Shown here one piece after another: positions 4,866 to 22,271 of a DNA stretch of 64,000 bases. The stretch spans positions 528,736 through 592,735 of the forward strand of contig CAVTBK010000005.1 of NCBI GenBank assembly GCA_963732935.1. Direction: 5' to 3'. Under the pieces are notes generated by a model. The model saw nothing but the letters and a program-made list of their open reading frames with translations. It was not told the DNA's origin and searched no databases. A program made the position numbers and the translations under genes. The DNA is from an uncultured Acidobacteriota bacterium (GTDB taxonomy: Bacteria; Acidobacteriota; Vicinamibacteria; Fen-336). The stretch's first letter is position 1; each line of letters opens with the position of its first letter.

Positions 4866-4869
4866 CTCC

Positions 4870-5358
4870 CTATCCCGAGGCGCCCGGCTCGCCGCCTCGC
4901 CGACCCGCGCGCAAGCGGCCCAGCAGGCGCAGCAGGCCGATCCGCGAGAGCCAGGCCACGGCACGCCGCTCGGGCCCGAGCCCCAGCCGCACCCGCCGGC
5001 CGCGCCTCTCGGCCCGCGTCACGACGCCCAGGACCTCCGCCCGCGCGACGAGCGGATCGGCTTGCGGCGCCGCGTCCCCGCGCAGGAGAAGACCGTCCTC
5101 CCGGCGTGCCACCAGCCGGTGCACGAGCAGTCGATCCTCGCGCGGCGCGAAGGCCACCACCTCACCCTGAGAGGGTGAAGCGCCCTGGCACGGCGCAATC
5201 GTGAGGACGTCGCCGGCGCGCAGGAAGGGCGCCATGCTGTGGCCGGTCACCTCCAGCCGGACGGCCTGACCGGCGCGCAGCAGGTCCCCCAGCAGACGCG
5301 GAAGCCGGGCGACGGAGGCAGCAGGCGGCGGTTGCTCGGGGAGGTCGGGAGGCAGCAC
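4870..5358 (-). CDS. Small soluble S24/S26-like serine peptidase (Ser-His type, SipW/Sec11-like motifs), translationally coupled to the giant gene
   Basis: 162 aa. Motif VTGHSMAPFLRAGDVL matches the nucleophile-Ser box of LexA/signal peptidase I folds, and LLVHRLV resembles the Sec11/SipW His motif. The GTG start at 5356-5358 directly follows the TAG stop (5359-5361) of the upstream giant gene. No N-terminal TM segment is visible. Confidence 0.6.
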   Translation of the reverse strand: MLPPDLPEQPPPAASVARLPRLLGDLLRAGQAVRLEVTGHSMAPFLRAGDVLTIAPCQGASPSQGEVVAFAPREDRLLVHRLVARREDGLLLRGDAAPQADPLVARAEVLGVVTRAERRGRRVRLGLGPERRAVAWLSRIGLLRLLGRLRAGRRGGEPGASG

Positions 5359-11300: not shown

Positions 11301-13212
11301 TCTGGCCGGTCGCGGGCACGCCGCTGGTGGCGGGATCAGCACCTGCACCGCTGAGCGTCGTCAAGTCAGGTCGGGTGACGGTGGTCGTCCCCGAGACGTA
11401 CTGCCAGTTCGGGGGAAGGTAGTCGGTGACCGTCACGCTACCCACCGTGTATTTTTCCGACCTCACGGCGAGCGTGAAGGTCGCCTGCGAACCGGACGCG
11501 GTCGGGACCACCTGAGGTGTCACCGACTTGGTCACGCCCAGCACGAGCGAGATGAAGTCGGTGCCGGGGATTGCCACGTAGCCGAGGTCCAGCGCGGGCG
11601 CGCCAGTCGGGGCGTTGTTCGAGTTCTGGCCGTACGCCATGCTGAAGAGCCCGGTCGCCCAGATCCGGGCGCCCGAGAGGTCGCCGTCGTTCGGGTCGTA
11701 GATATACTGGCTCTGCAGGCGGCTCAGGGTGTAGGTCTGGTCGATCGTCCCGTCGTTGTCGTAGTCGACGAACACGGTCGTGTTGTCCTGGGCGGCGATC
11801 AGAAAGGCGCCCATGTCGCTTCTGTCGCCGGCGGCGCAGGTCGTCGGGTAGCAGTCGGGCGCCCAGCCGAAGAAGTGCTCCCGGTAGAGCATCGTGGACG
11901 GGAGCAGGCTGTATCCCCACTCGTGCGCCTGCCCCTCGGAGTCGTTGGAGCCCACCCCCCAGAAGACGTCGCTGCCCCGCAGGTAGAGCCCCGAGCCGGC
12001 AGGCAGGTTGCCCGCCAGCGCGCGGAAGGACACCGCGCTGGTGGCGGGGATGTTGAAGAAACCGGAGGTCGTCTCGGTGGACCAGTCGATCCTGATCGAC
12101 GCCGCGTTCGGGTTGTAGAGGTAGTAGTCGGTGTAGCCGTTCGCCGTGCTGGTGGGCTGGTCGAGCGGGGCGTAGTAGTCGGTCGTCCAGAAGCCGCGGG
12201 GGAAGGCGCTGAAGCCGCGCGTGTTGTAGGTGTCGTTGGTGTTGCCCGCGATGTACTTCACCTGCAGCGTGTCGCTGCCGGTGATGATCGCCCCCTCCGC
12301 CAGGTTGCCGGCCGCGACGTGGGCGCTGGTGTCGTCGAGCAGGAAGGTCTGCCCCTCCTGCAAGGTCACCGAGTAGGCGTCGAGGGCGCCGTTCCTGTCG
12401 GTGTCGAGCTGATCGGCCGTGCCGTCGTGGTTGAGGTCGAAGGTTACCGTCGTGTTGTTCTTGGTCGCCTGGACCAGCACGGCCACGTGCTCGAAGCCGT
12501 GCCATCCACGTGTCTCGCCGAAGGGAAGCACGTAGGTCGTGAGCTGCGGCTTGATCGGGTAGATCTCCCAGGCGGCTCCCTGGACCCCGACGGTTCCGCC
12601 CCGGGCGGCATTCTCGTCCAGCCAGCCCACCCGCGTGACCGTGACCACCCCGCCGGCGACGTAGATGCGATCCCCCCCGTCGTAGCAGGTGGTGCTGTTG
12701 GTCCCGCCCCTGATCACCGTCGAGGTGCCCCCGGCCCGGTAGAGCGTGGCCGAGTAGGTGCCGCACTGGGTCGCCGGTGGGTTGGGGGGCGCGCTGGGGT
12801 AGGTGTTCCAACGCGGGAGCGCGATCGTGCCGCTGTCGAAGACCAGACGGTCGCCGGTGTTGAGGGCGTGGCCGCTGGCCACGTCATAGGTCTCATCCGC
12901 GGTGGCGGGATTCGCGGGGTCGAAACCGTAGCCGTTCTCCCAGTGGTCGAAGTAGACGGTCGTGTTGTCCGACCAGGCCGTCACGCTGATCACGACGTGT
13001 GTGTGGACGGGGTTCGGGCACGGGTACGCCCAGGCGCCGTAGACGCAGAGGACGCGGCCCATGTTGTCCTCGTCGCCTGGGATGAAGTACTCGGAGTACC
13101 CGGCCGCGACCTGGGCCATGGCCGGCGATGCGGCCAGGACGAGGAGGAGCGCCAGGGCACCCCGGCGCCATGCCTTGAGAGCACGGAAGGTCGTCGTCAG
13201 AGCAAGAATCAT
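5359..13212 (-). CDS. Giant secreted multidomain protein (about 2617 aa): signal peptide, three N-terminal repeats, DUF11-like repeats, two lectin/CBM-like modules, about six Cna-B/SdrD-type repeats, Ala/Ser-rich linker, C-terminal peptidase C25 (gingipain-like) domain
   Basis: Single ORF. The likely start is the ATG at 13210-13212 (MILALTTTFRALKAWRRGALALLLVLAASPAMA-QV, a signal peptide); the ORF track extends to 13410 through an in-frame upstream region with no ATG start. Repeats of the SdrD-B type (VWLDADGDGVQDFGESGIANVEVTL, VWVDANGNGLRDAGE, VWFDLNGNGLWDSGSE, VYFDTNGNGVQDSGE, VWNDTNGNGVLDTGE). The C-terminal 340 aa align to gingipain catalytic-domain motifs (YVTLVG, NYVGHGG, LGMTCVAGNF). 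Confidence 0.85.
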   Translation of the reverse strand: MILALTTTFRALKAWRRGALALLLVLAASPAMAQVAAGYSEYFIPGDEDNMGRVLCVYGAWAYPCPNPVHTHVVISVTAWSDNTTVYFDHWENGYGFDPANPATADETYDVASGHALNTGDRLVFDSGTIALPRWNTYPSAPPNPPATQCGTYSATLYRAGGTSTVIRGGTNSTTCYDGGDRIYVAGGVVTVTRVGWLDENAARGGTVGVQGAAWEIYPIKPQLTTYVLPFGETRGWHGFEHVAVLVQATKNNTTVTFDLNHDGTADQLDTDRNGALDAYSVTLQEGQTFLLDDTSAHVAAGNLAEGAIITGSDTLQVKYIAGNTNDTYNTRGFSAFPRGFWTTDYYAPLDQPTSTANGYTDYYLYNPNAASIRIDWSTETTSGFFNIPATSAVSFRALAGNLPAGSGLYLRGSDVFWGVGSNDSEGQAHEWGYSLLPSTMLYREHFFGWAPDCYPTTCAAGDRSDMGAFLIAAQDNTTVFVDYDNDGTIDQTYTLSRLQSQYIYDPNDGDLSGARIWATGLFSMAYGQNSNNAPTGAPALDLGYVAIPGTDFISLVLGVTKSVTPQVVPTASGSQATFTLAVRSEKYTVGSVTVTDYLPPNWQYVSGTTTVTRPDLTTLSGAGADPATSGVPATGQTLVWSTAQTGGAMAPNQSIVVTFTARTTVALPEGTLSQNRVQAVGTRTVSGVTQTFTTKDFTYVVSEGTAGTTVQITKASSVPEATPVYPGDTLTYTTTVSNPAGSGTTLTGVTLYDMLPAGVSSVSGTTILSASSVADRFDTVAYGNNNGSRNWTGSWVETQDDAAPATGVVRVTGGELRLTSYLTPPSTVEDDFGTAAYNNNDGTTNWNGNWVDSQGDGPNAGDIRILNGQLRLGGNAQTIYRQVNLAGATAATITCNYTTSGNVDNGDYMWIDVASSPAGPWTTVLNFQNDHTGTVNFAIPAGLLSATTTIRIYTTSYENNEYFYVDNLAISYSAATPAISRGVDLAGSGATWAELAFDYRTSNNLEPTDDIAVQYRLGGGGAWMTLATYSDDVSGVATFAIPLAAPAGLTEVRFSIPAASDYAENGEYFYVDNLSITYDRAVSGSNPPDLLPSAYGYALAAGRTLTATFNVTVDAPLPTGISSITNTASTTSVQLPIQVSASATNIVTNPSVVSASVAGRIWLDADGDGVQDFGESGIANVEVTLKDVWGTPLGTLYTDVGGRYLFPTVAPGDGYYVEVTGGLPAGVSQSYPNPAVYGGNRSVPFNLARGDSYTSADLGYRPATGTVLFGDQVWVDANGNGLRDAGEVAYAGATVSLLLDANGNGVLDAGETTPIQTTTSGVDGHYLLTASGLTGGEDYFVAVQTPGGYALTTPGTYYFPNVVAGTAYVTADFGFTGSTVTTYAISDRVWFDLNGNGLWDSGSESGIAGVSVDLLDASLNVIGTAVSAADGTFSFSGVTGGGANYTTRVSDTGGVLADFAGTTTWAVARRRAESNLTADRDRRSSPSYGFRATRAIGDTVYFDTNGNGVQDSGEGGIPGVVVQLYQGGTPLYTTTTDANGHYVFAGLGDGSYVVSVPALTGYAFTGTDADPVLAGLQLNATITGGVSYWGADFGFQALVSRSLSGVVWNDTNGNGVLDTGETGIAGVTLDVLSGGTVIAGLTTDADGIYSVQGLAAGTYTVELTDVNGVLAGLSATYERTEGTTGPFDLQETVDLSSADVSGVDFGFRPPQVTFANVASFRTHLTGGAVVVEWRTSVEVGTRGFHIFRFDTVSREWKRLDERLVPGLLGHPEGGTYRFTDFGAEAEGPSSYMLVEVDARGVEQAHGPYTVAPSETAASVAADPEPSMRSLGSSVAGNRAKTVLSVLAGPSPWLSGQGAAAASLAQAAAMSSVASSAGGMSSVASSAAGGSLAMKDLLFGRQPAPMTQLAQQRAQEANAQQRAAAAARRSWRGGWVELTTRQSGLYYVAADEIAVPAGLTPDTARVLIRTRQLVVAHRGQPVPYLPDALDAGIFFYAEPATGIYTDENVYQIGVGSGATMSAVATDGRGGAAAFFQETVHREEDVFAAPSVVQDPDGDFWFWAYALAGYEGLDTASVTVPAVGVVAAGSASLTIRMAGGSDDAAEIDHHVTVSWNGSTVGEDSWGGLGPHLIQIPMLAGEVREGDNTLEVRAVHDAGVPEDVVYLDSVDLGYARQYRAVDDTLAFAAPRGAAVEISGFSSADVLLLDVTTPASPRLLSHTTTAVPGEGYRIRFGAVAASSGRYLALVRQRALAPLAVVASRQPTLRDRHNVAEYVLIAPDSLEPAAAALADYRNRNGLRTMVAPLTAIYSEFNGGIPEPTAIRAFLRYATASWQTPPRYVTLVGRGTWDYKDVMGVGDNLVPPLMASSANGLFVSDVRLADLRGDDGIPEVAIGRLPVVTSQELLDYLAKIERQESAPGEAWQHAVLMAADNPDGAGAFTADSDAVAALLPPGYAAAKVYLTTTTAASGRKAIRDALNAGVGVFNYVGHGGLDRFADEGLWTSSDVAGLANPDRLPILLGMTCVAGNFAIPGYASLAETMVLKKDGGAFAAWSPTGLSENALAVKLDKSFFTAALLRNEKVVGDAVGRALRELIGASAVPTRYMYNLLGEPVSRLPD
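5362..6395 (-). other. Peptidase C25 (clan CD, gingipain-like) catalytic domain at the C-terminus of the giant protein
   Basis: aa about 2340-2683: VLIAPDSLEPAAAALADYRNRNGL...PRYVTLVGRG...IPEVAIGRLPV...NYVGHGGLDRF (candidate His, codon about 5746-5748) ...PILLGMTCVAGNF (candidate Cys, codon about 5644-5646). No recognisable T9SS, PEP-CTERM or LPXTG C-terminal sorting signal follows. Confidence 0.7.
7551..7610. repeat. Near-perfect 30-bp tandem duplication inside the giant gene linker
   Basis: ccgccgacgaggccacgctggacatgccgc followed by ccgccgacgaggccacgctggacatcgcgg. It encodes the duplicated SSVASSAGGM/SSVASSAAGG within an Ala/Ser/Gln-rich low-complexity linker. Confidence 0.7.
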
Positions 13213-13419
13213 CGGGCCCCCGCGGCCAGAAAACGCCTGTCGGAGCATAGCCGGGGTGGCTGAGAATACGTCGTGTTTCCGGACACATCGCACCACGCCT
13301 GTGATCCAACGCAAGTGCGATGCCGCGTCGCAAGTCGCTTGTTTGCAGCAAATTCGCGACGTGATCCTGTCCGGGTTCCGGACGCGGGGTCCGATCCGGA
13401 CCCGCAACACGCCGAGTCG
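13213..13419 (-). promoter_or_regulatory. AT-richer 207-bp intergenic region upstream of the giant gene, with three TCCGGAC motifs and CGCAAGT direct repeats
   Basis: TCCGGAC occurs at about 13277-13283, 13374-13380 and 13395-13401, around the palindromic core TCCGGA. cgcaagtgcga and cgcaagtcgc lie at 13311-13338. GC is locally lower (aaattcgcgacg, ttgtttgcagcaaatt). Confidence 0.3.
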
Positions 13420-14520
13420 CTAGGTGCGGGCCACGCCCGCCAGGTAGCCCTCGACGACGTCGACCGCCGCCACCTCGGGCCGGAACTCCAGGGTCGCTGT
13501 GGGAACCGAAGACACGAGCCGGCCGCAGGTCTCGAGCGCACCGCCCACGTAGTCCCGGTCGTACCAGGGCACCGACGTCGTGCGCAGCAGCCGGGCGAGC
13601 GCGTCCTGGGCACTGACCGGACGGACCTCGTTGGTCCGTCCCTGCTCGAGGAAGAGGATGCCCGCCAGCGGGCCTTCGAGGTTCGCCGCAGCCAGTCCCT
13701 CTCCCGGCCAAGGCGTGCCGAGGAGCGAGGGGTTCCCGTCCTCGGTCCGTACGATGACCCTGTCGTCAGAGAGCGGCGTCCAGCCCGCTCTCCCGGCCGC
13801 GAGGGCGGTGAGCGTCGTCTTCCCCGCCCCGGAGACACCGACGAAGGCGAGCCCCTTCCCGCCGACGAGAGCGCCGGCCCCGTGCACGACGATGCCACTC
13901 TCGGCGAGCAGGTACATGGTGAGGATCTGATCGAGCGGATAGTGGAACGGGCTCGTGAGGACCGGGCCCGCCTCGTCGCTCACCAGAAGCCGCGGTGCGC
14001 ACTGGACCACGACTTCCGGCGAGCCGGGACGGAACTCCGCCACGTACAGCGTGTCGCCGTCGGGGTGCCGGAACGCCACCGCTCGTCGCTTGTCCCTGGC
14101 GAGGATCGACCAGGTAGCGCTGCTCCGAAAGAGCGTCTCTCCCTCGAAGGAGGGGGACTGGGTGACCGTGTGCCGGATCCGCACGGCGGACCGCGCCGCC
14201 GCAAGGCCAGGGGCCGTCGGGGCGGCGGCGACGAAGGTGCGATAGGCCGGGTCGCTCTCCAGTCGGAGCTCGAGCCCTTCCGCCGAGAGCAGGAAGTCGA
14301 CGCCGCCGAGACGGATGCGCCAGGAGGGGGGCAGGCCTAGGAGCCCTTGCCCGCGCAGCTGTGGACCATGCAGACGGGGGGGGCCGCAGAGCCCACGGCA
14401 GTCCTGCCAACCATCTTGCAGCCGACCGCGAGCACTTCCTCGGCTTTGAGGTCGACGATCAGCAGCTCGGGCTTCTCGTACGGCGCCTTCGCCGGGGGCT
14501 CCCTCGTCACCATACGTCAC
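13420..14520 (-). CDS. HPr kinase/phosphorylase C-terminal-domain-like kinase (lasso-peptide-kinase-like, HprK-related)
   Basis: HGAGALVGGKGLAFVGVSGAGKTTLTALAAGRAGWTPLSDDRVIV matches the HprK C-domain pattern HG.L....G.G.L..G.SG.GKS..A..L...G..L..DD (a P-loop). The N-terminal extent is uncertain; the track uses the farthest alternative start. Confidence 0.65.
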   Translation of the reverse strand: MTYGDEGAPGEGAVREARAADRRPQSRGSARGRLQDGWQDCRGLCGPPRLHGPQLRGQGLLGLPPSWRIRLGGVDFLLSAEGLELRLESDPAYRTFVAAAPTAPGLAAARSAVRIRHTVTQSPSFEGETLFRSSATWSILARDKRRAVAFRHPDGDTLYVAEFRPGSPEVVVQCAPRLLVSDEAGPVLTSPFHYPLDQILTMYLLAESGIVVHGAGALVGGKGLAFVGVSGAGKTTLTALAAGRAGWTPLSDDRVIVRTEDGNPSLLGTPWPGEGLAAANLEGPLAGILFLEQGRTNEVRPVSAQDALARLLRTTSVPWYDRDYVGGALETCGRLVSSVPTATLEFRPEVAAVDVVEGYLAGVART

Positions 14521-14596
14521 GTTAAGGCGACGCTGACTCGCTTGTCAAGGAAGCGCGGGCTGGTAGAGACGGGCGCCGGGAAGGTGGCCGAACGCC

Positions 14597-15631
14597 CTAC
14601 TCGTCGAGCAATGCGGCGATCGCCCGCCAGCGGGCCTCGCCGAGCGCGCAGTAGTAGTCGGACTTGCGCTGCGGGCTCCCCGTCTCCATGCCGGCCTGCG
14701 CCGGACACAGACCGCACAGGAAGCGCTTCTCGCAGGAGTGACATTCGTAGCCCGGCTCGACCGGCTGCTCCCGGAAGCCGGGCAGGACGGTCTCCCACCC
14801 TTCCCGGAAGCTGCCTCGACGCAGGTCGAAGCCGTGCGACGAGGCCATCAGACACGGCAGCAGCGTGCCCTCCGGGTCCACGTGGAAGCCGGTCAGGCCG
14901 GCCCCACACGAGAAGAGGCGCTGCTCGGGTGCTGCGCCGCGCACCTTTCGAAAGTACTCGGCGGTGAGACGCAGCAGGCCCTCGTCCTCCATCTCCAGAG
15001 CCACCGTCTGCTCCGGCGCGACGCGGTGGTCGAGCGGGGTCCGGCAGCCGTCGCGGCACGGGAAGAGCGCTCCGTCGATCCGGAACGCGAGCTGCCGCTC
15101 CTCCGCCAGCCCGCGCATTGCCCGGACCTCGTGCAGGTTCTCACGCATGACCACGGTCTTGAGGGCGACCGGGATGCGCCGGGCGACGAGCGCATCGACG
15201 CCGGCCAGGCAGCGCCGGTAGGAGCCGGGCACGCCCGTCACCCCCTCGTAGACCTCGGCGCTCGCCCCGTAGAGCGAGACCTCGACCATCTCCGGTGTGA
15301 GCCGCTCGAAGAGCGAGACGAGCCGCTCGTCGACGAGCGTGGCGTTGGTGAAGACGGTGACCAGGATGCCGCGGCGCGCGGCCCGCTCGTACACCTCGGC
15401 GAAGTCGCGTCGCAGCAGGGGCTCCCCGCCCGTGATCAGGAGGTTCAGGCATCCGGCGTCCGCCACCTGGTCGACCAGCGACAGCCAGAAGGCGGTCGCG
15501 CGCTCGCGGGGCTCGAGACCGCCCTGCCGCTCGTCGCCCAGGTAGCAGTGCAGACAGCGCAGGTGGCAGCGGTGGGTCATGGCGATCGAGCCGCTCAGGG
15601 GGACCCTGGCCGCCCGCGCACGCTCCAGCAT
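14597..15631 (-). CDS. Radical SAM/SPASM-domain peptide-modifying enzyme
   Basis: CHLRCLHCY is a CxxxCxxC motif soon after the likely start MLERARA. The C-terminal Cys-rich twitch/SPASM region reads YECHSCEKRFLCGLCPAQAG...YYC. The track ORF extends to 15763, overlapping pqqD; the true start is uncertain (ATG near 15630). Confidence 0.8.
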   Translation of the reverse strand: MLERARAARVPLSGSIAMTHRCHLRCLHCYLGDERQGGLEPRERATAFWLSLVDQVADAGCLNLLITGGEPLLRRDFAEVYERAARRGILVTVFTNATLVDERLVSLFERLTPEMVEVSLYGASAEVYEGVTGVPGSYRRCLAGVDALVARRIPVALKTVVMRENLHEVRAMRGLAEERQLAFRIDGALFPCRDGCRTPLDHRVAPEQTVALEMEDEGLLRLTAEYFRKVRGAAPEQRLFSCGAGLTGFHVDPEGTLLPCLMASSHGFDLRRGSFREGWETVLPGFREQPVEPGYECHSCEKRFLCGLCPAQAGMETGSPQRKSDYYCALGEARWRAIAALLDE

Positions 15632-15680
15632 CGCCGTGATCCGCGCGTGAACGGCGTCGGCATGCGGTGCGGCGCCCACC

Positions 15681-15983
15681 TCAGCTCCTCCGCTCGGCGA
15701 TGCCAGCCTCGGCCAGCCGCTCCACGAAGGCTCGGAGGTCCACGCGAGCCTCCTCGGCGCCAACCTCGTAGTGGTCCAGGATGGCGGCGAGCACGGCCTC
15801 CAGCGACCGCTCGCCGTCCAGCAGTTCCCAGACGAAAGCGCCGACGCCGGTCACCATGAAGATCGACTTCAGCTCGGCCGCGTCCCGCCGGATCGGCACC
15901 AGCAACCGCTCACCGGCCACGTCCCGGAGGATGACGTCGTTTCGCCGCGCGAAGACGGCGTCCGCAGCGTTCTGCTGAGGCAT
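15681..15983 (-). CDS. PqqD-family peptide chaperone (RRE domain)
   Basis: MPQQNAADAVFARRNDVILRDVAGERLLVP...IFMVTGVGAFVWELLDGERSLEAVLAAILDHYEV...RAFVERLAEAGI is the canonical PqqD fold signature. The ATG at 15981-15983 is preferred over the track's TTG at 16025. Confidence 0.8.
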   Translation of the reverse strand: MPQQNAADAVFARRNDVILRDVAGERLLVPIRRDAAELKSIFMVTGVGAFVWELLDGERSLEAVLAAILDHYEVGAEEARVDLRAFVERLAEAGIAERRS

Positions 15984-16024
15984 GGGCTGGTGGGCAGCAT
16001 ACGGCGCGCGAGCGGAGACGGTCA

Positions 16025-16042
16025 AGCGGCCCTTGGCTATAC
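16025..16042. repeat. Left copy of an 18-bp direct repeat (AGCGGCCCTTGGCTATAC) flanking the IS
   Basis: It is identical to 17556-17573. The right copy contains the TAG stop of the methyltransferase gene. Confidence 0.7.
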
Positions 16043-17555
16043 TGTTGTTGACAAGTGAAATGTCCGCTTGGTTTTGACAAGTGATCGGTCCGCTTTTCGC
16101 TAGGCCTTCGATGTGGCGTGCAGGGTCGGAGTGCCAGCCGGAGGGAGCCGGAGGCGACCGGAGGCTGGCACTGCAGCGGCGGCCGCCCGCCGCTTCGAGG
16201 GCCTGTAGCTGCTGATCGCGGGGACGACCTGAGAGTCGACCCGAGCTGCGTTCGTCGATCCTGGGGCATCCTGGCGCGTCGGTCTGCTCGGCTCGGGCGC
16301 GCGAGCCCGACCCTCCGCGCTGTAGGAGCCGAGGAGCTGGGCACCACGGCGAATCGTGTAGCCTCCGTCGAGGTGGCGGCGGACCTGGACCGCAAGCCCC
16401 GCGCAGGTGTGGCGCCCCGGCTGCTTCGCGATCTGCAGCACGGTTCCTTCGAGGCTGACCGTGTTGTCCCTACGTACCGTGCGGTCTTCGTACTCGAAGA
16501 AGATCCCATTGAGATCAACCTCACCGAGCCCCACGAAAGCACTCTCGGGATCGGAAGCCTCGCAGGCGAACTCCTCGTTGTGCGTCGGGATGTAGCGCTC
16601 GCCTAGATATCGATTCGCCGCCTCTACCGTCGTGATCCCGGCCGCGCGCAGCTCGTTCACCAGCCGGTCCTGCAAAGTGCGATTCATCCGCTCAGAGCGG
16701 CCGCGTCCTTGGGGCGAGTAGGACGGGATGTGCTCGACCCCGAGCCGATCCAGCGCCTCCCCGACTTGGGTCAAGACCGTCTTGCTGACCTTGCCCCCGG
16801 CCTTCGGAGTCTCGAAAGCCCACCCCGCTCGGTCCGTGTAGAACGACTCGGGGATGCCATGCTGCCGCACCAGCTCCGCCATCGCTGTCATCACGGCGCG
16901 GGTCGTCTCTCCTGGCCACAGTTGCGCATAGAGCACCCGCGAGGTCGCATCGTCCACCGACTGAATCAGCGTCTGCTTTTCCCCGGGCACCAGCGCCAGC
17001 CAGGCATGGAGGCTGCCGTCCAGGTGCAGCATCTGACCGAAGCGGGGCTTCCTCGGTCTCCTCATCCGGTGTCGACCTCGAGCCTTACGTTTCTCGATCA
17101 GACCCGCCCCCTGCAGGATCTGCTTCACGCACGTGTACGACAGCTTCACTCCGTGCTCCCGGCGTACCGTCGAGCAGAAGTGCCGAGCGTTGAAGCCCCG
17201 ATAGCGGTCCCGATACAGCTGCAGGATCCGCTCGATTTCCGCCACCGCTGTCCGCCGTGGAGACGGTCGGCCGCACCGCCGGTCGACAAGCCCCTCGTAC
17301 CCGAACCGCTCCATCCTCTGCCGCACCCGCCTCAAGCCTCGAGGCGTAATCCCCAGGATCTCCGCAGCCCGAAGCCAGCTGTACTCCTTGTTCATCGTCC
17401 GCAGCAGCACTTCCTTGACCTGCATGGCCCGCTCCACAGCCGAGAGCGGAAAGTCCATGGCCACCTCCACCGGCGGCCATACACCCCTTCTTCCCGGCTG
17501 GCAAAAGCGGACATTTCACTTGCTCTCGAGAGCGGACCGATCATGTGCTCTCTAC
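16043..17555 (-). mobile_element. Insertion sequence (about 1.5 kb) with IS481/ISNCY-like rve transposase and composite terminal repeats
   Basis: Single transposase ORF at 16100-17470. Each end carries two sub-repeats, CAAGTGAAATGTCCGCTT and TGATCGGTCCGCT, in inverted orientation (left 16050-16098; right 17505-17553 as reverse complement). It is bounded by the 18-bp direct repeat. Confidence 0.75.
16100..17470 (-). CDS. DDE (rve/integrase-core) transposase with N-terminal HTH, IS481/ISNCY-like
   Basis: 456 aa. N-terminal HTH region (WLRAAEILGITPRGLRRVRQR), then integrase-core DDE residues: LHLDGSLHAW, ...IQSVDDATSR (D), ...FYTDRAGW (D), ...SERMNRTLQDR (E). It appears intact. Confidence 0.85.
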   Translation of the reverse strand: MEVAMDFPLSAVERAMQVKEVLLRTMNKEYSWLRAAEILGITPRGLRRVRQRMERFGYEGLVDRRCGRPSPRRTAVAEIERILQLYRDRYRGFNARHFCSTVRREHGVKLSYTCVKQILQGAGLIEKRKARGRHRMRRPRKPRFGQMLHLDGSLHAWLALVPGEKQTLIQSVDDATSRVLYAQLWPGETTRAVMTAMAELVRQHGIPESFYTDRAGWAFETPKAGGKVSKTVLTQVGEALDRLGVEHIPSYSPQGRGRSERMNRTLQDRLVNELRAAGITTVEAANRYLGERYIPTHNEEFACEASDPESAFVGLGEVDLNGIFFEYEDRTVRRDNTVSLEGTVLQIAKQPGRHTCAGLAVQVRRHLDGGYTIRRGAQLLGSYSAEGRARAPEPSRPTRQDAPGSTNAARVDSQVVPAISSYRPSKRRAAAAAVPASGRLRLPPAGTPTLHATSKA

Positions 17556-17573
17556 AGCGGCCCTTGGCTATAC
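17556..17573. repeat. Right copy of the 18-bp direct repeat flanking the IS
   Basis: AGCGGCCCTTGGCTATAC, identical to 16025-16042. Confidence 0.7.
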
Positions 17574-19232
17574 GAGTGTGAAGGTGAGCGGTTGCGAGCC
17601 GTGCGAGACGAACCAGCAGATCTGCTCCGCGACCAGATCGACGGCGAAGCGCGCGGCACCTCGGCCGGCCGGGGCACTACGGACGTCGGTCTCCACCGAG
17701 GCGCCCGGAGCGACATCGGACGGCAGCGGGATCCGCAGGTAATCGCGGTCGCGCACGCCGCCCTCGGCGTCCAGCAGTTGCACGCCGAGGCTCACGGTCC
17801 CCCGCGCCTTCTCCGGCTCCGCGAGCCAGATCGTGTCACCCGTGTTGGTGAGCCGCAGCCGCAGCCGGAACCGCCCTGCGTCCGGGGTCGGGGGAAAGTC
17901 GCCCAGAGGCTCGATCCGCGCCTCGAAGCGGTGGGGGTCGCGGCTGTCGGACCAGCCGATCTCCATCTCGACGTCCTGCGTCGGCGAGCCCCGCTGCGAG
18001 AACCAGGCGATCCCGTCGGCCACCAGGTCCAGCCGGAGCCGGAAGCGTCCCTCCCGAGCCGGGAGGCCGAAGGAGCTCGACACCGAGACACGCTCGCCCG
18101 GGGCCACGTCGCGCGGCAGACGCTCGGTCAGGCAGCCGATCCGGATCGTGTTGCCCGCGGCGTCGAGCAGGTGCCCTCCCACGCCCACGTAGCCGCCGGT
18201 CACCCGGTTCTCGGCTGCCAGCCAGGTCGTGTCGCCGGTGTTCTCGACCTGCATGGTGAAGCCCACCAGCGTCCCGGCGCGCCCGCTGAGCCGCGTGCCC
18301 TCCGGCACCGTGATCCGCGCGCGCAGCACCCCCGGGTTGCGGCTGTCCCGCGTCGGCTGTCCCTTCAAGAGGATGAGCAGGTGGAACTGCTTCAGGCTGT
18401 CGATCATGTGGTTCATCGGGAAGAGGCTGTGATCGCCCTCCAGCAGCCGCAGGTGGGCCGCCCCGCTCAGCAGCAGGATCGGGACGTCCGGGTAGGGCTT
18501 GACCTGCACCCGATCGAAGCCCGCGCGCCGCACGCGATCCATCAGCTCCTCGAGCACGATGTCGTTCTCGAGCACGCCGAAGTTCGCCGAGTCGAACTCC
18601 GACGCGTCCGCGTGCGCGTGGCCCTCGCCCGGCTCCGCCATCACCAGCCTGCCTCCGGGCCGGAGTACCCGGAAGAGCTCGGCCAGGATCTCGTCCTGAT
18701 TGGGCACGTGGTGGAACGAGTCGAAGCACAGCGCGCGGTCGACCGAGGCGTCGACGAGCGGGATCCGGTGTCCGTCGTACGGAAGGAACTGCGGGTCCAG
18801 CTCCGGGTGGGAGTGCGGCTCCAGGGCCAGCGCCTCGCGGCCGATCGCCAGCGCGGTCGGACTCACGTCGACCGAGATCGTGCGGCAGCGCAGGCGGTTC
18901 AGGATGACCGACAGCCAGCAGCTCCCGGCGCCGAAGTCGAGCACCGTGTGACCGAGCCCGAGGTCGAGCGCCTCGAGCGCCAGGCCCAGCCGGTAGATCA
19001 TGGCCGGAGTCTCGCGCGGGCTCGCGAAGGGCTTGGCGAGCAGGTACCCGCGGCGCTCCGGGTCGGCGTTCATGGTCTGCCACTGGCGCTCCGCAGCCGC
19101 GTTGAGCTCCTCGACCCGGCCGAGCAGCTCCGCTTCCGAGTGGCGGTGGGAGTGGGTCGGAGTCCTGCGCCAGAGCGAGGCGCCCGCGAGCTTGAGGTAG
19201 CGACGGGCCTGTCCGAGCCGTGTCCTGAGCAT
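17568..19232 (-). CDS. Class I SAM-dependent methyltransferase with two C-terminal repeated beta-sandwich (CARDB/NBR1-like) modules
   Basis: VLDFGAGSCWLSV (SAM-binding motif I), LRPGGRLVMAEP. The C-terminal duplicated modules each carry (V/L)xNTGDTxWL...G.V.LGxxLLDAxG...R..L....APGxxV (aa about 330-440 and 440-554). ATG at 19230-19232, with CATAAT on the minus strand about 10 nt upstream. Confidence 0.8.
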   Translation of the reverse strand: MLRTRLGQARRYLKLAGASLWRRTPTHSHRHSEAELLGRVEELNAAAERQWQTMNADPERRGYLLAKPFASPRETPAMIYRLGLALEALDLGLGHTVLDFGAGSCWLSVILNRLRCRTISVDVSPTALAIGREALALEPHSHPELDPQFLPYDGHRIPLVDASVDRALCFDSFHHVPNQDEILAELFRVLRPGGRLVMAEPGEGHAHADASEFDSANFGVLENDIVLEELMDRVRRAGFDRVQVKPYPDVPILLLSGAAHLRLLEGDHSLFPMNHMIDSLKQFHLLILLKGQPTRDSRNPGVLRARITVPEGTRLSGRAGTLVGFTMQVENTGDTTWLAAENRVTGGYVGVGGHLLDAAGNTIRIGCLTERLPRDVAPGERVSVSSSFGLPAREGRFRLRLDLVADGIAWFSQRGSPTQDVEMEIGWSDSRDPHRFEARIEPLGDFPPTPDAGRFRLRLRLTNTGDTIWLAEPEKARGTVSLGVQLLDAEGGVRDRDYLRIPLPSDVAPGASVETDVRSAPAGRGAARFAVDLVAEQICWFVSHGSQPLTFTLV

Positions 19233-19388
19233 GGGAGCCTTCGATTATGCCTCAGACGGCTCGTCTTTCCGGGGACCCAGCCGCTCCCGCCCGCACGCGA
19301 CGCCGATCGGAGGGAGTACACGGGCGACTGCCGGACCGCCCCCCCTTGCCGGGCGGGGTATGCTGCACGACCGAAAGGACGGTGCCGC

Positions 19389-20282
19389 GTGACCGCGCTC
19401 TATCGCCACACCCAGATCGGCTGGGTGGTCCTCGTCACCCTGGCCGCCACGACGGCAATTGCGGTTCCGCTGGCCCGGGTCGAAGGCGCCCCCGAGGGTG
19501 GCTTCTTGATCGCGGGCCTGCTGCTGCTGGCGGGCCTCGTCTTCTCGACGCTCACGGTCGAGGTCGACGGCCAGGCGGTCCGGATCCACTTCACCGGCGG
19601 CCTGCCACGCCGACGCGTCCTGCTCAGCGATCTGCGCGCCTGTCGCGCGGTGCGCAACCCCTGGCGCTACGGCTGGGGCATCCACATGATCCCGGGCGGC
19701 TGGATCTGGAACGTCTCCGGGTTCGACGCGGTGGAGCTCGCGCTCGCGGACGGAAGCCTCCTGCGAGTCGGAACGGACGAGCCCGAGGCGCTGGCGCGCG
19801 CGATCAACGCGGTCGTACCGGCCTCCACGCGGGACGCCGGTCCGCTGCCGATGCCGGTGGTCCGCCGGCGGGGGGCCGGCTTCTGGATCACCGTGGCGGC
19901 GGTCGTCGCGGCGGGCGTCGGTGCTCTCGTCGTCCTCTTCACTCTGCAGGCGCGCCCGCCCGAGATCTCGATCACCCGGACGACCCTGTCCGTCCGCAGC
20001 CTCTTCTATGGTGAGGACTATCCGATCGCCGAGATCACGGCGGTGTCGCTCGAGCCCCGTCTGCCCCGCATCCTCGCGCGCACGAACGGTTTCTCGGCCG
20101 AGGGGTTGCTGCGGGGATGGTTCCGGGTATCCGGGCTCGGGGAGGGGAAGCTCTTCGTGGACGTGAGCGCCCCACCTTTCGTCCTCGTGCGTCTGCGCCG
20201 CGGTTTCGTGATCCTCAACTTCAGCCAGCCCTACCAGACACGAGCGCTCTACGCGGCGATCGAGCAGTCCCGCCGCCCCTGA
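19389..20282 (+). CDS. Membrane protein with bPH/YdbS-like (DUF304-type) PH domains
   Basis: VTALYRHTQIGWVVLVTLAATTAIAVPL (a TM segment), ...GWGIHMIPGGWIWNVSG..., a second TM at WITVAAVVAAGVGALVVLF, then a second PH-like half. The start is a GTG (assumed). Confidence 0.5.
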   Translation: MTALYRHTQIGWVVLVTLAATTAIAVPLARVEGAPEGGFLIAGLLLLAGLVFSTLTVEVDGQAVRIHFTGGLPRRRVLLSDLRACRAVRNPWRYGWGIHMIPGGWIWNVSGFDAVELALADGSLLRVGTDEPEALARAINAVVPASTRDAGPLPMPVVRRRGAGFWITVAAVVAAGVGALVVLFTLQARPPEISITRTTLSVRSLFYGEDYPIAEITAVSLEPRLPRILARTNGFSAEGLLRGWFRVSGLGEGKLFVDVSAPPFVLVRLRRGFVILNFSQPYQTRALYAAIEQSRRP

Positions 20283-20423
20283 CCCTCGGCGCTCCGAAAC
20301 CGTTATCGCGCCAGCACCCGGCGGGGCTCGGGTCGATTTGACAACCGCCGCAAGCCCGCTAAGCTCGTGCGTCCGTTTGCGTCATCCGGACTCCAGGACA
20401 AAAGCGCCCCCGGAGGGCTCTTC

Positions 20424-22271
20424 ATGAACCAGCAGATCGCCGGTATCTGGCACCCGCTCGACATCGCCGTCCTCATCGTCTACTTCATCGCGATGATCGG
20501 GATCGGCGTCGCCGTGATGCGGCGCGCCTCGCGCGGCCTCGACAGCTATTTCCTCGCGGGCAACGAGCTCCCCTGGTACGTGCTGGGGGTCTCCAACGCC
20601 TCGGCCATGTTCGACATCACCGGGACGATGTGGCTCGTCTACAACATCTTCGTCTACGGGATGAAGGGGATCTGGCTGCCCTGGCTGTGGCCCACCTTCA
20701 ACCAGGTGTTCCTCGCCGTCTACCTCGCCCGCTGGATCCGCCGCGCCAACGTGCTGACCGGCGGCGAGTGGATCACCACCCGCTTCGGCGAGGGACGCGG
20801 GGCCGAGCTCGCCCGTGCCATCGTCGTCATCTTCGCGCTGGTGAGCGTGGTCGGCTTCATCGCCTACGACTTCCAGGGCATGGGCAAGTTCACCGCCTCG
20901 TTCCTGCCCTGGGACCTCTCGGCGAACAGCTACGGCGTCATCATCATGGGGATCACGGCCATCTACGTGCTGATGGGCGGGATGATCAGCGTGGTGCTCA
21001 CCGACGTGGCGCAGTTCGTGATCATGGCGATCTGCTCCCTGGCGATCGCCGCCATCGCGATCTACAAGGTCGCCCCCGAGCAGATCGCGGCGGTCGTCCC
21101 GGCGGGCTGGACCAACCCCTTCTTCGGCTGGAGGCTGGCCCTCGACTGGCAGCCTCCGCTCGAGGTGCTGAAGACGAACGTGACGGCCGACGGCTACTCG
21201 ATCTTCGGCCTGTTCTTCATCGCCATGCTCTTCAAGGGGATCCTGGTCTCGATCGCCGGACCGGCCCCGAACTACGACATGCAGCGCGTCCTGGCGGCCA
21301 AGACCCCGCGCGAGGCCTCGCTCATGAGCGCGGTCGTCTCGGCAGCGCTCCTCCCGCGCTGGTGGATGATCGGCGGGATCACGGTGCTCGCCCTCCACTA
21401 TCGCGACAAGGTCTTCCCCGGCCTCGGCCAGCCCGGCTTCAAGCCCGATTTCGAGATGATCCTGCCCTGGGTCATCCGCGACCAGATCCCGGTGGGTCTG
21501 CTGGGCGTGCTGCTCGCGGGTCTTCTGGCCGCGTTCATGTCGACCTTCAGCGCCACCGTGAACGCCGGCGGCGCCTATCTGGTGAACGACCTCTACAAGC
21601 GCTACCTCAAGAAGGACGGCACGCAGCGGCACTACGTGCGGGTCAGCTGGACCGCCCAGATCGTGATCCTGGCCGTCGGGATCTTCTTCGGCTACCAGGC
21701 CGCCTCCATCAACCAGGTCACGCAGTGGATCGTCAATGGCCTCTGGGGCGGCTACACGGCCCCCAACATCCTCAAGTGGCACTGGCATCGCTTCAACGGT
21801 TACGGCTATTTCTGGGGCATGCTCTCCGGGATCGCCGCGGCCCTTGCCCTGCCGGCGCTCTTCCCGGGGCTCCATCCCCTCTGGGGCTTCATCCCGATCT
21901 TCACGATCTCGCTCGCCGCCAGCATCCTGGGCAGCCTGTGGAGCGAGCCGGAGCCCGACGAGGTCCTGCTCCAGTTCTACCGGCAGATCCGGCCCTGGGG
22001 CTTCTGGGGTCCCGTGCTCCGCAAGCTGCAGGCCACGGATCCCTCCTTCCAGCCGAACCGTGACGCCGTGCGCGACGGCTTCAACGTGGCGCTCGGCATC
22101 ATCGCGCAGATGACCCTCGTGACGCTCCCGCTCTACATGGTGCTGCGGGATTGGCGGGGCTTCTGGATCTCGCTGATCGTCCTGGCGGCGACCAGCCTCG
22201 TGCTCAAGAAGACCTGGTTCGATCGGCTCGAGCCCCACGGAGCCGCCGCCACCTCGGCGCGTGGCGCCTAG
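20424..22271 (+). CDS. Sodium:solute symporter family (SSF) transporter
   Basis: MNQQIAGIWHPLDIAVLIVYFIAMIGIGV..., multi-TM SSF topology. SD GGAGGG at 20413-20418. Confidence 0.85.
   Translation: MNQQIAGIWHPLDIAVLIVYFIAMIGIGVAVMRRASRGLDSYFLAGNELPWYVLGVSNASAMFDITGTMWLVYNIFVYGMKGIWLPWLWPTFNQVFLAVYLARWIRRANVLTGGEWITTRFGEGRGAELARAIVVIFALVSVVGFIAYDFQGMGKFTASFLPWDLSANSYGVIIMGITAIYVLMGGMISVVLTDVAQFVIMAICSLAIAAIAIYKVAPEQIAAVVPAGWTNPFFGWRLALDWQPPLEVLKTNVTADGYSIFGLFFIAMLFKGILVSIAGPAPNYDMQRVLAAKTPREASLMSAVVSAALLPRWWMIGGITVLALHYRDKVFPGLGQPGFKPDFEMILPWVIRDQIPVGLLGVLLAGLLAAFMSTFSATVNAGGAYLVNDLYKRYLKKDGTQRHYVRVSWTAQIVILAVGIFFGYQAASINQVTQWIVNGLWGGYTAPNILKWHWHRFNGYGYFWGMLSGIAAALALPALFPGLHPLWGFIPIFTISLAASILGSLWSEPEPDEVLLQFYRQIRPWGFWGPVLRKLQATDPSFQPNRDAVRDGFNVALGIIAQMTLVTLPLYMVLRDWRGFWISLIVLAATSLVLKKTWFDRLEPHGAAATSARGA

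Follow-up and report, generated by a model that had tools for sequence, protein, structure and literature searches.

Serine kinases related to HprK take part in lasso-peptide biosynthesis. In these systems a His-Lys-Asp-Asp motif is reported to be conserved among the kinases, PadeK is reported to phosphorylate the conserved C-terminal Ser of the precursor, and the nucleotidyltransferase-like PsmN acts on the phospho-Ser of pseudomycoidin. The combination of PqqD, a radical SAM (rSAM)/SPASM enzyme and an HprK-like protein is also already catalogued in curated models (NCBIfam SynChlorMet ScmC/D/E/F and HprK_rel_B; Pfam ScmC), and the view of the first-pass annotation of the present DNA that an rSAM/SPASM enzyme paired with an HprK-like protein outside lasso machinery had not been described is therefore corrected. 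Searches for a paper on this catalogued combination without lasso enzymes, and for experimental literature on the system examined here, found none.

Here, a 64,000-nucleotide stretch of DNA from an uncultured Acidobacteriota bacterium (the window) is examined. An interval that had been read as an orphan tailoring cassette is instead probably a complete, leader-dependent rSAM RiPP gene cluster with a recent insertion sequence inside it. Its features, in gene order along the minus strand, are as follows (the first is not a conserved member).

17568-19232, minus strand: class I SAM methyltransferase, 554 aa; its C-terminal part holds a duplicated pair of beta-sandwich-like modules (Pfam Methyltransf_11, 66 bits)
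16025-17573, minus strand: ISNCY-family insertion sequence including its duplications; body 16043-17555 (1513 bp), transposase ORF 16100-17470
15681-15983, minus strand: PqqD-family RiPP recognition element (leader-peptide chaperone), 100 aa from ATG 15983 (Pfam PqqD, 58 bits; cut-off 23.4)
14597-15679, minus strand: rSAM/SPASM peptide maturase, 360 aa from the most likely start, GTG 15679 (Pfam Radical_SAM, 73 bits)
14337-14513, minus strand: precursor peptide gene, 58 aa, MVTREPPAKAPYEKPELLIVDLKAEEVLAVGCKMVGRTAVGSAAPPVCMVHSCAGKGS (from the ORF listing; between the rSAM and ScmC genes)
13420-14334, minus strand: ScmC-family P-loop protein of HprK/PEPCK fold, about 304 aa, putative peptide Ser kinase (Pfam ScmC)
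5359-13212, minus strand: giant secreted protein, about 2617 aa from Met 13212, with Sec signal peptide, repeats of the DUF11 and SdrD-B types and, at the C-terminus, a PorU-like C25 cysteine-peptidase domain
4870-5358, minus strand: small S24/S26-type Ser/His peptidase, 162 aa, candidate leader peptidase (Pfam Peptidase_S24, 28.6 bits; cut-off 23.3)

The earlier description of a RiPP maturation cassette is thus supported, and its domain calls hold for the methyltransferase with duplicated modules, the PqqD-family recognition element, the rSAM/SPASM enzyme and the HprK/PEPCK-fold protein.

A conserved precursor peptide gene

The first-pass annotation found no plausible short precursor ORF. That statement is wrong, because the conserved 58-aa ORF lies inside the extension of the kinase ORF; it was missed because it occupies another frame of that ORF (13420-14520), which is over-extended by about 62 codons relative to homologues of about 300 aa. 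Homologous small ORFs occur at the same position between the rSAM and ScmC genes in L001, L002, L004 and all window-type loci of the genome scan, and the precursor is present in 80 of the 80 loci of the metagenome scan. In every window-type locus examined, the peptide genes at this position encode 52-64 aa with a PqqA-like leader. A profile search recovered at least 530 cluster representatives (E<=0.01), none of which has a name or a Pfam domain. The precursor itself matched no model in NCBIfam or Pfam, and the source contig has a database entry for the identical 58-aa protein (P0144).

The family is recognized by a YEKPxL leader, a GCK motif, a C-x4-C motif and a near-invariant C-terminal Gly-Ser. 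Written out, the leader follows PYEKPxL...L..EE.LA and the Cys-rich core GCK-x11-14-C-x4-C-x3-GS, in which the Lys adjoining Cys is invariant. Among the best 120 of the at least 530 homologues, every sequence ends in Ser, 119 end in Gly-Ser, 119 carry GCK and 119 have their last Cys five residues from the end, with Cys spacing fixed. A variant from Terriglobia (..CGK..C..S) has the terminal Ser in 18 of 19 loci. One precursor, that of L007, lacks a terminal Ser. Of the two things that would mark an ordinary RiPP cluster, a precursor and a cyclase or protease nearby, the precursor is thus found, whereas the neighbouring ORFs scanned include neither a lasso cyclase, as the first reading had held, nor a B-protease. 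The cluster also has no exporter gene.

Maturation enzymes

The PqqD protein matches the NCBIfam models for lasso PqqD, ScmD and GeoRSP PqqD, each below its cut-off. Sigma-70-like hexamers (TTGACC-18-TATGCT, 16025-15996) precede its gene, although these are a consensus match only, with 1 site found versus 0.6 expected. The longest ORF of the rSAM gene extends to 15763; with the most likely start at GTG 15679, the gene begins 1 nt after PqqD instead of overlapping it by 83 nt, such that the adjacency originally described stands but the overlap does not. The CX3CX2C motif and all seven SPASM cysteines are kept in 37 homologues. The best NCBIfam matches of the enzyme are MftC (98 bits over the full length, against a cut-off of 265), ScmE (94 bits) and PqqE (91 bits), all far under their cut-offs, and its closest solved structure is PqqE (6c8v; E 3.7e-13, full length).

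In ScmC, the P-loop, a His, a Lys and two Asp are invariant, in keeping with the first-pass comparison of its motifs to those of lasso-peptide Ser kinases. The top structural match is PEPCK, not HprK, and HprK is only marginally similar in sequence (E 5e-4). No ATG, GTG or TTG is present at the conserved start in the window, which has CTG at 14334 where homologues have Met, and the ScmC protein recorded for the source contig has just 254 aa. In L017, L041 and L042, NTP_transf_5 genes or an NTP_transf_5-S24 fusion are found, a parallel to PsmN of pseudomycoidin.

The two C-terminal modules of the methyltransferase are 43% identical to each other over 90 aa (E 2e-16). An orthologue lies directly upstream of PqqD in L001 only, and the 31 listed metagenome loci with a length of 5 kb or more gave no methyltransferase HMM hit, which leaves the gene known from the window and L001. 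It is either a lineage-specific accessory or a gene that simply lies alongside, and does not count among the conserved members. Of the four-gene set as initially drawn, PqqD lies beside the rSAM gene in most related loci, whereas the methyltransferase does not belong to the conserved neighbourhood.

The giant C25 protein and the S24/S26-type peptidase

The giant gene, whose longest ORF extends to 13410, encodes a hydrophobic signal segment (ALALLLVLAASPAMA, KD 1.99), five SdrD_B repeats and a Peptidase_C25 domain (Pfam, 265 bits) that scores 219 bits against the NCBIfam PorU sortase model NF033707 (cut-off 420). The catalytic His of GH[GAS] and Cys of [TS]C are kept in 11 of 11 homologues. A C25 domain adjoins the cassette in 11 of the window-type loci found via ScmC, the window included. 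Of the 31 metagenome loci with a length of 5 kb or more, 23 have one as well, and another 4-5 have a long ORF following ScmC that is truncated where the contig ends. The adjacency is seen in Vicinamibacteria-like, Nitrospirota, Thermoanaerobaculia, Anaerolinea and unclassified loci, as well as in one Methanoperedens locus whose C25 region is cut by the locus end. The coupling between cassette and giant protein proposed in the first pass is real: it holds for the majority of loci whose length allows a judgement, which span several bacterial phyla and include one archaeon. Several loci also adjoin polysaccharide-export or pilin-like genes.

The peptidase gene, coupled to the giant gene as previously noted, starts at a GTG that directly abuts the stop of the latter. 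The protein resembles the NCBIfam archaeal-type signal peptidase I (7.7e-8) and NiSOD maturation protease (1.8e-7) models, both under cut-off, and its G-x-S-M(-x-P), H-R and G-D boxes are invariant in 31 homologues. No hydrophobic segment of transmembrane strength precedes the catalytic Ser, and 28 of the 31 homologues have none anywhere, which suggests that the enzyme is probably cytoplasmic. In Terriglobia loci, the peptidase gene adjoins ScmC, and no C25 domain was detected in the flanks. This Ser/His enzyme is therefore a conserved partner in the module and a candidate leader peptidase, where the earlier reading saw no leader protease. It could, nevertheless, serve the giant protein instead of the precursor; in L043 it is fused to a transmembrane segment and an SdrD_B domain. 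A minimal variant of the L014 type lacks PqqD, the peptidase and C25, such that these three are not universally required.

An insertion sequence within the cluster

The ISNCY element, which separates the methyltransferase from PqqD and went unmentioned in the first-pass annotation, is present in a single copy in the window. Its transposase scores 324 bits against NCBIfam NF033594 (cut-off 250). The element has perfect terminal inverted repeats of 18 nt and is flanked by a perfect 18-bp target-site duplication, the direct repeat AGCGGCCCTTGGCTATAC in two copies (16025-16042 and 17556-17573). It is intergenic, just past the methyltransferase stop, whose TAG falls within the duplication, and no coding sequence is disrupted. 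Without the element and one of the two repeat copies, the stop of the methyltransferase would lie 11-53 bp from the start of PqqD. Since the element parts the methyltransferase from the rest, and since purL near the cluster is spread across three frames, the locus may have decayed in part, or its sequence may be error-prone.

Alternative explanations

What the analysis establishes is the identity of the genes, the presence of a conserved precursor, and the conservation of catalytic residues and gene neighbourhood. An orphan cassette, its rSAM enzyme and kinase targeting either an unlinked substrate or part of the giant C25 protein, would fit both the proximity of that protein in most window-type loci and the absence of an exporter and lasso enzymes. 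It is largely refuted by the precursor and is now very improbable: every window-type locus examined carries the peptide gene, the Terriglobia and minimal variants retain it with no C25 domain detected in their flanks, and the precursor HMM has no match in the giant ORF. The substrates proposed earlier are thus unnecessary. The peptide might instead be a dedicated partner of the giant C25 protein rather than a free natural product, serving as a substrate or acceptor when C25 catalyses cleavage or transpeptidation (with surface anchoring or conjugation as the outcome), or as a cognate inhibitor or activator of the protease. Gingipain-type C25 enzymes are specific for Arg or Lys, which the invariant Lys beside Cys would suit, and the tight, phylogenetically wide association, the conserved His/Cys dyad, the resemblance to the PorU sortase, the missing exporter and the polysaccharide-export or pilin-like genes beside several loci point the same way. 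This is nonetheless rather unlikely, as the Lys, Cys and C-terminal Ser persist in variants with no C25 detected in the flanks, export of the giant protein is by Sec whereas the maturation enzymes are cytoplasmic, and the PorU score lies under cut-off and implies no T9SS.

That the cluster in this genome is a decaying or inactive remnant is suggested by the intact 18-bp duplication around the element, the missing ScmC start codon with its short recorded protein, and the broken purL. We consider it quite unlikely, given that no cluster ORF is broken and none lacks a catalytic or invariant residue, that the element hit no coding sequence and that promoter-like hexamers, if by consensus match only, follow it. 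If the purL frameshifts are assembly indels, which they may be, the ScmC start-codon anomaly may likewise be an error. Doubt of a different kind attaches to ScmC itself, which might act as a phosphorylase, as an enzyme that uses pyrophosphate, as a scaffold that depends on ATP, or as a kinase whose target is another residue or a small molecule. The conserved C-terminal Gly-Ser would then be where the rSAM enzyme recognizes its peptide or reacts with it, comparable to the C-terminal Val-Tyr of MftA in the case of MftC. MftC is the top-scoring NCBIfam model for the rSAM enzyme over its full length, PEPCK heads the structural matches and similarity to HprK is slight; but the MftC score is far under cut-off, the P-loop, His, Lys and two Asp are invariant, and the NTP_transf_5 genes found alongside recall the pairing of kinase and nucleotidyltransferase in phosphorylated lasso peptides, which makes a role other than peptide Ser kinase rather improbable.

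Proposed pathway

For the complete RiPP cluster favoured here, we infer the pathway as a whole, including the kinase activity, the kinase site and the rSAM reaction, as the most likely mechanism. By analogy to its family, the discrete PqqD protein would bind the N-terminal leader of the precursor and present the peptide to the PqqE-like rSAM/SPASM enzyme, which may install one or more cross-links in the Cys-rich core; Cys-derived thioethers appear most likely, although confidence in this chemistry is low. ScmC, as an ATP-binding P-loop enzyme, would phosphorylate the near-invariant C-terminal Ser, as suggested by the conservation pattern and by the HprK-like lasso-peptide kinases PadeK, ThcoK and PsmK. 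The S24/S26-type peptidase would then cut off the leader, probably in the cytoplasm, and the methyltransferase would be a lineage-specific extra. The giant secreted PorU-like C25 protein would be a conserved functional partner of window-type systems, and may process the peptide extracellularly, take it as a transpeptidation partner or anchor, or be its target. The system is an uncharacterised variant of rSAM RiPP systems, built around a precursor family that is itself widespread and uncharacterised.

Gene organization and boundaries of the cassette

The minus strand carries eight features between positions 4870 and 19232 of the window, the G + C content of which is approximately 71%.

Features of the cassette region (window positions, scores in bits)
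17568-19232, minus: class I SAM methyltransferase (Methyltransf_11, 66)
16043-17555: ISNCY insertion sequence, transposase at 16100-17470 (NF033594, 324; cut-off 250)
15681-15983, minus: PqqD (Pfam PqqD, 58; cut-off 23.4)
likely start GTG 15679, minus: radical SAM (rSAM)/SPASM enzyme (Radical_SAM, 73)
14337-14513, minus: precursor ORF, 58 aa
end at 13420, minus: HprK-like (ScmC) gene
5359-13410 (longest ORF), minus: giant protein with Sec-type signal peptide from Met 13212, five SdrD_B repeats, and a C-terminal C25 domain (265)
4870-5358, minus: S24-like peptidase, 162 aa

The downstream limit of the cluster is purL, encoded on the opposite strand; the upstream limit is a divergent ORF without a family match that apparently encodes a membrane protein. 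Rfam identified no RNA family across 4500-20500, and a scan for promoters and terminators did not exceed chance expectation. The boundary gene purL (FGAR amidotransferase, approximately 1056-4865, plus strand) is distributed over three frames (ORFs 54-2243, 2165-3679, and 2727-4865), whereas its ortholog in the related locus L001 is intact and encodes 1271 aa. This difference suggests that the window carries assembly indels or that its purL is a pseudogene, and it reduces the trust to be placed in frames and start codons elsewhere in the window.

A conserved precursor peptide between the rSAM and ScmC genes

The first-pass annotation reported that the cassette lacked a precursor. It had taken the longest ORF (366 aa, 13420-14520) as the kinase, such that only a 76-bp gap was visible after the rSAM gene. 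Homologs of the kinase are approximately 300 aa long and their alignment begins only near residue 63 of the 366-aa ORF. The space freed by the shorter kinase holds, in another frame, the precursor MVTREPPAKAPYEKPELLIVDLKAEEVLAVGCKMVGRTAVGSAAPPVCMVHSCAGKGS, and the earlier claim gives way to a conserved 58-aa peptide gene at 14337-14513. A gene of 52-64 aa was called at the identical rSAM-to-ScmC position in three related contigs (L001, L002, and L004), and a custom HMM recovered the precursor in all loci of the genome scan that share the gene order of the window (window-type loci), as well as in 80 of 80 loci of an independent metagenome scan that was itself seeded with a five-sequence precursor alignment. 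A profile search of a 5.8-billion-protein collection returned at least 530 cluster representatives, among them an identical 58-aa protein already on record; all homologs are annotated as hypothetical, none with a Pfam domain, and the precursor matched no NCBIfam or Pfam model.

In the precursor signature, Y-x-K-P-x-L and E-E-x-L-A motifs occupy the N-terminal half; after these come G-C-K, C-x4-C, and an x3-G-S C-terminus. Across homologs, the leader and the Cys and Ser positions are conserved and the intervening core is variable. Every one of the best 120 precursors terminates in Ser, 119 of them with Gly-Ser, and 119 have their last Cys five residues from the C-terminus; of the metagenome precursors, 79 of 80 end in Ser. 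A lipobox reading of LAVGC was dropped on account of the wrong residue at -3 and the lack of a hydrophobic signal segment. SPase-like cleavage before the first Cys (A-x-G↓C) was also considered, but L007-L009 and the Terriglobia variant do not agree in their -1 and -3 residues. The possibility that the substrate is part of the giant protein was rejected, since the precursor HMM found no match in the giant ORF.

Upstream of the precursor (14513-14570, minus strand), a perfect TTGACA is located 17 nt upstream of a TTAACG that ends 6 nt before the ATG, and no obvious Shine-Dalgarno sequence precedes this ATG. The pair might be a promoter dedicated to the precursor gene, the transcript of which would then be leaderless; however, the -10 element matches poorly, and the site was not called by the consensus scan.

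The kinase-like protein ScmC

ScmC contains a P-loop kinase domain with HprK/PEPCK topology, in which H153, a Walker-A G-x-SGAGK motif (K174), SDDR (D192, D193), and G-x-P-W-x-G are invariant. It scored 33.8, 22.8, and 22.2 bits against the NCBIfam models HprK_rel_B, HprK_rel_A, and ScmC, all below the cut-offs of 200, 200, and 125, and is therefore an equivalog of none of them, including the HprK-related kinase A and B models (TIGR04352/TIGR04355) that the first-pass annotation had proposed for a check. Precomputed annotation assigns Pfam PF27840 ("ScmC") to P0001, a recorded protein 100% identical to that of the window, and to 119 of the 120 homologs listed; the assignment is that of the precomputed annotation, the match being absent from a local Pfam run on the window protein. 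The ScmC family is large: among 1.84 billion representatives, a profile search found 1,948 proteins at E ≤ 1e-30.

In lasso peptides, the C-terminal Ser hydroxyl of the precursor is phosphorylated by HprK-like kinases, of which PadeK is an example, and a C-terminal Ser is "extremely conserved" in lasso precursors wherever such a kinase is present (review of lasso-peptide tailoring, PMC9266682). The terminal Ser of the precursor and the His-Lys-Asp-Asp set of ScmC agree with the site and motif described there, and it is on these features that ScmC is proposed as a putative PadeK/ThcoK-like kinase that would phosphorylate the C-terminal Ser.

The ScmC frame contains no ATG, GTG, or TTG between 14520 and 14184. 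The conserved start, at which homologs begin with "MPP..", corresponds to CTG 14334 in the window, and the closest relative (P0002) has a GTG start where the window has CTG 14373. The recorded P0001 is a 254-aa truncation with a start at GTG 14184 that would miss approximately 50 conserved N-terminal residues. The start-codon and purL anomalies reflect either assembly errors (indels or substitutions) or a locus that is beginning to decay.

PqqD, the rSAM/SPASM enzyme, the methyltransferase, and an insertion sequence

The score of PqqD (58 bits against 23.4 in Pfam) places it among PqqD-like RiPP recognition elements (RREs). In the rSAM enzyme, the CX3CX2C motif (C66, C70, C73) and all seven SPASM/C-terminal Cys are conserved across 37 homologs, and the nearest solved structure is PqqE (6c8v; full-length match, E 3.7e-13). 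Comparison with homologs of 355-373 aa makes GTG 15679, 1 nt past the PqqD stop, the most likely start. With an rSAM/SPASM enzyme, a PqqD RRE, and an adjacent precursor gene, the locus has the three sequence features of an RRE-dependent rSAM/SPASM RiPP cluster.

The duplicated C-terminal modules that had been noticed in the methyltransferase are indeed related (43% identity over 90 aa, E 2e-16). The methyltransferase was found in the window and L001 only, and is thus a lineage-specific addition at most. The interval between the methyltransferase and PqqD genes contains an ISNCY element, overlooked in the previous inventory, that has the full set of diagnostic features: a transposase, a perfect 18-nt terminal inverted repeat bounding 1513 bp, and a target-site duplication in the form of a flanking perfect 18-bp direct repeat, AGCGGCCCTTGGCTATAC, at 16025-16042 and 17556-17573. 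It is single-copy within the window, and its relationship to ISNCY elements on alphaproteobacterial plasmids is distant (68-71% over approximately 200 bp). The element inserted right after the methyltransferase stop codon and destroyed neither a coding sequence nor a precursor gene; since this stop codon is within the target duplication, the methyltransferase and PqqD genes were just 11-53 bp apart before the insertion.

A small S24/S26-type peptidase

A leader protease had also been reported as missing, and the small S24-like peptidase is a candidate for this role. Its gene adjoins ScmC directly in Terriglobia loci, in the flanks of which no C25 domain was detected, and is present in most window-type loci, indicating that the peptidase is more than an appendage of the giant gene. 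Three boxes of ER/archaeal (SipW-type) signal peptidase I, namely G-x-S-M, H-R, and G-D, show no variation in 31 homologs, with the Pro of the G-x-S-M-x-P box present in 94%; these boxes imply a Ser/His dyad, with Ser41 and His80 as its residues in the window peptidase. Hydrophobicity at the level of a transmembrane (TM) segment was detected nowhere before the catalytic Ser, and nowhere at all in 28 of the 31 homologs. With no TM segment ahead of the catalytic Ser, the catalytic domain is probably cytoplasmic, a location that would suit a leader peptidase and not a Sec signal peptidase.

The window peptidase shares the G-x-S-M-x-P, H-R, and G-D boxes with SipW (TIGR02228) and the NiSOD maturation protease SodX but differs from them in that it lacks an N-terminal membrane anchor and gives only weak matches, below cut-offs, to the archaeal-type SPase I (32 bits against 51.85 for TIGR02228) and the NiSOD protease. 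As a precedent, SodX is a small S26-type enzyme dedicated to a single substrate, the N-terminal propeptide of which it removes. In L043 (10888-11769), the S24 domain is followed by a hydrophobic/TM segment and an SdrD_B-like domain, which is a caveat to a role as leader peptidase. In other related loci, an NTP_transf_5 nucleotidyltransferase is fused to an S24 domain (L041:2140-3804), or the precursor ORF continues in frame into the peptidase ORF, representing a fusion or a sequencing error (L020:9015-9698).

The giant C25 protein

The suspected link between the giant protein and the cassette was substantiated by the adjacency of a C25 domain across related loci (the window, L001, L002, L004-L007, L009, and L041-L043), where the domain is usually at the end of an SdrD_B-rich protein of more than 1,300 aa. 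Of the 31 loci of at least 5 kb in the metagenome sample obtained with the precursor as seed, 23 had a C25 match; in a further 4-5, ScmC is directly followed by an ORF longer than 900 aa that is cut off by the end of the contig. Organisms named in the record of the C25-linked loci are Nitrospirota, Thermoanaerobaculia, and Anaerolinea, and the closest named homologs of the window proteins are from Vicinamibacteria. A Methanoperedens locus (L040) also has an adjacent SdrD_B-rich giant protein, which ends at the locus edge before any C25 region. The catalytic His and Cys of C25 are conserved in 11 of 11 sequences.

The giant protein of the window belongs to C25 (265 bits against a cut-off of 23), with the domain at approximately residues 2070-2683. 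Its C-terminal 600 aa match C25 and the N-terminal and catalytic parts of the PorU model, and thus resemble this type IX secretion system (T9SS) sortase at 219 bits, below the cut-off of 420 for PorU itself; as compared with PorU and the gingipains, the domain is at the end of an SdrD-B protein of approximately 2,600 aa. The hosts of the giant proteins (Acidobacteriota, Nitrospirota, Chloroflexota, and an archaeon) are not known to be T9SS organisms. No C25 domain was found in the flanks of the Terriglobia loci or of the minimal variants typified by L014, which makes the giant protein a conserved partner within one branch of the family rather than a universal requirement.

Other architectures among related loci

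A scan of the genome collection with a 14-sequence ScmC alignment listed mostly distant Terriglobia loci as matches, not loci of the lineage of the window. In these Terriglobia loci (L011-L037; for example, L011:9094-12097) the order is precursor, S24 peptidase, ScmC, PqqD, and rSAM. Their precursor (..ALxCGK..C..S), encoded upstream of the peptidase, has two Cys and, in 18 of 19 loci, a terminal Ser. Downstream of the cassette there is often an NTP_transf_5 gene (L017) or a gene for a conserved secreted protein of approximately 600 aa without a Pfam domain (L011, L012), and no C25 domain was detected within 10 kb. The minimal variant (L014:8247-10510, L010, and L034) consists of rSAM/SPASM, precursor (..LAAGCKT..C..NSCFNFGS), and ScmC genes, with no PqqD, S24, or C25 found in the flanks of L014 and L034; L010 spans just 2.1 kb. 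The L014 cassette is downstream of a prepilin-type N_methyl (pilin-like) protein, a TPR protein, and a sigma-54 activator, and a great many of the highest-scoring precursors listed are peptides of the L014 type. Approximately 4 kb upstream of the cassette, L002 (2461-4668) and L003 encode a Ser/Thr kinase-TPR protein, a 700-aa radical SAM protein, and then a 30-aa ORF, a set that may be an unrelated second peptide-modification locus.

Comparison with known systems

Lasso peptide clusters with a kinase (paeninodin PadeK, ThcoK, and pseudomycoidin PsmK/PsmN) have in common with the window an HprK-related P-loop kinase and a PqqD-type RRE. The C-terminal Ser that is extremely conserved in precursors of phosphorylated lasso peptides, and is their phosphorylation site, is shared by the window family, and ScmC has an invariant H153, K174, D192, and D193, corresponding to the motif described for the lasso kinases in PMC9266682. 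NTP_transf_5 nucleotidyltransferase-like genes in some related loci are also reminiscent of phosphorylated lasso systems. In contrast to lasso clusters, the core enzyme of the window cassette is an rSAM/SPASM protein, the precursor combines a PqqA-like YEKPxL leader with three Cys (Cys32, Cys48, and Cys53), and ScmC has an extra N-terminal domain by which the protein becomes PEPCK-like. In agreement with the first-pass annotation, neither an Asn-synthetase-like cyclase nor a transglutaminase-like B2 protease was found among the ORFs scanned, which were part of those from purL to an Ldh-like gene and several of which had no match, and the cluster is on this basis not a lasso cluster. A Transglut_core3 gene occurs in the distant locus L042 only.

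The SynChlorMet (SCM) cassette (TIGR04248-04251; PF27840), with loci in Syntrophobacter fumaroxidans and Chlorobium limicola, shares with the window a PqqD homolog, PqqE-like rSAM/SPASM, and an HprK-like ScmC, without lasso enzymes. The window proteins match its models weakly, however (ScmC 22.2 against 125, ScmD 28.8 against 100, ScmE 94.2 against 400, and ScmF 61.7 against 400), SCM has two rSAM/SPASM genes where the window has one, and the window system adds the S24/S26-type peptidase and the giant C25 protein. Given the four scores under cut-offs and the single rSAM gene, it is not the NCBIfam SCM cassette. The SCM model descriptions are not known to name a precursor, nor are the curated databases known to list a substrate for such cassettes. 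The view that such a combination was undescribed needs amending, given that the pairing is catalogued in curated models (SCM, HprK_rel_B, and Pfam ScmC). Literature searches returned no papers for SynChlorMet and HprK-related kinase, and none that describes this PqqD/rSAM/HPr-kinase RiPP pairing or a linkage of C25 to an rSAM peptide cassette.

In PqqD/PqqE-type rSAM RiPP systems (PQQ, mycofactocin, and sacti- and ranthipeptides, e.g., SkfB and CteB), as in the window, a discrete PqqD RRE accompanies a SPASM rSAM with two auxiliary-cluster motifs, and PqqE, SkfB, and CteB are the nearest solved structures to the window rSAM. The window precursor is short, with a leader like the PqqA-type K-P-x-[FL] and a Cys-rich core that suits thioether formation. 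Differences are that the rSAM reaches no NCBIfam equivalog cut-off, that the precursor is in no curated family, and that those systems include neither the kinase nor the S24-type peptidase nor the C25 partner.

Proposed pathway and implications

Far from being an orphan set of tailoring genes, the cluster reads as complete, with the conserved 58-aa peptide as its putative substrate. The best reading, which is considered likely, is a leader-dependent pathway of PqqD, rSAM, ScmC, and peptidase. In this pathway, the YEKPxL leader would be bound by PqqD, the Cys-rich core would be cross-linked by the PqqE-like rSAM/SPASM enzyme, most likely through thioethers, Ser58 would be phosphorylated by ScmC, and the leader would be removed by the probably cytoplasmic S24/S26-type peptidase. 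The system would then operate like a PqqD/PqqE-type rSAM RiPP to which a lasso-type C-terminal Ser kinase has been added.

A bolder and rather improbable proposal is that the rSAM-modified and probably C-terminally phosphorylated peptide is a dedicated partner of the secreted PorU-like C25 giant and not a diffusible natural product, acting, for example, as nucleophile or acceptor, anchor, or cognate regulator in C25-catalyzed cleavage or transpeptidation. If true, this would constitute a RiPP-dependent system of surface-protein processing or conjugation common to Acidobacteriota, Nitrospirota, Chloroflexota, and at least one archaeon.

The precursor family, the non-lasso pairing of a C-terminal Ser with a kinase, the S26-type candidate leader peptidase, and the coupling to C25 appear uncharacterized. 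Together they outline a large RiPP-like family, unnamed in the sources searched, with at least 530 precursor clusters and approximately 1,900 ScmC representatives at E ≤ 1e-30, and with a sharp, testable signature (YEKPxL leader, GCK, and C-x4-C-x3-Gly-Ser-COOH). The family offers a candidate precursor type for ScmC/SynChlorMet-like cassettes, and with it the HprK-like phosphorylation of a C-terminal Ser would no longer be confined to lasso peptides. Its near-obligatory association with giant secreted C25 (PorU-like) proteins, seen in several phyla and one archaeon, may mark a new way in which lineages abundant in soil and sediment couple a modified peptide to the biology of cell-surface proteins.
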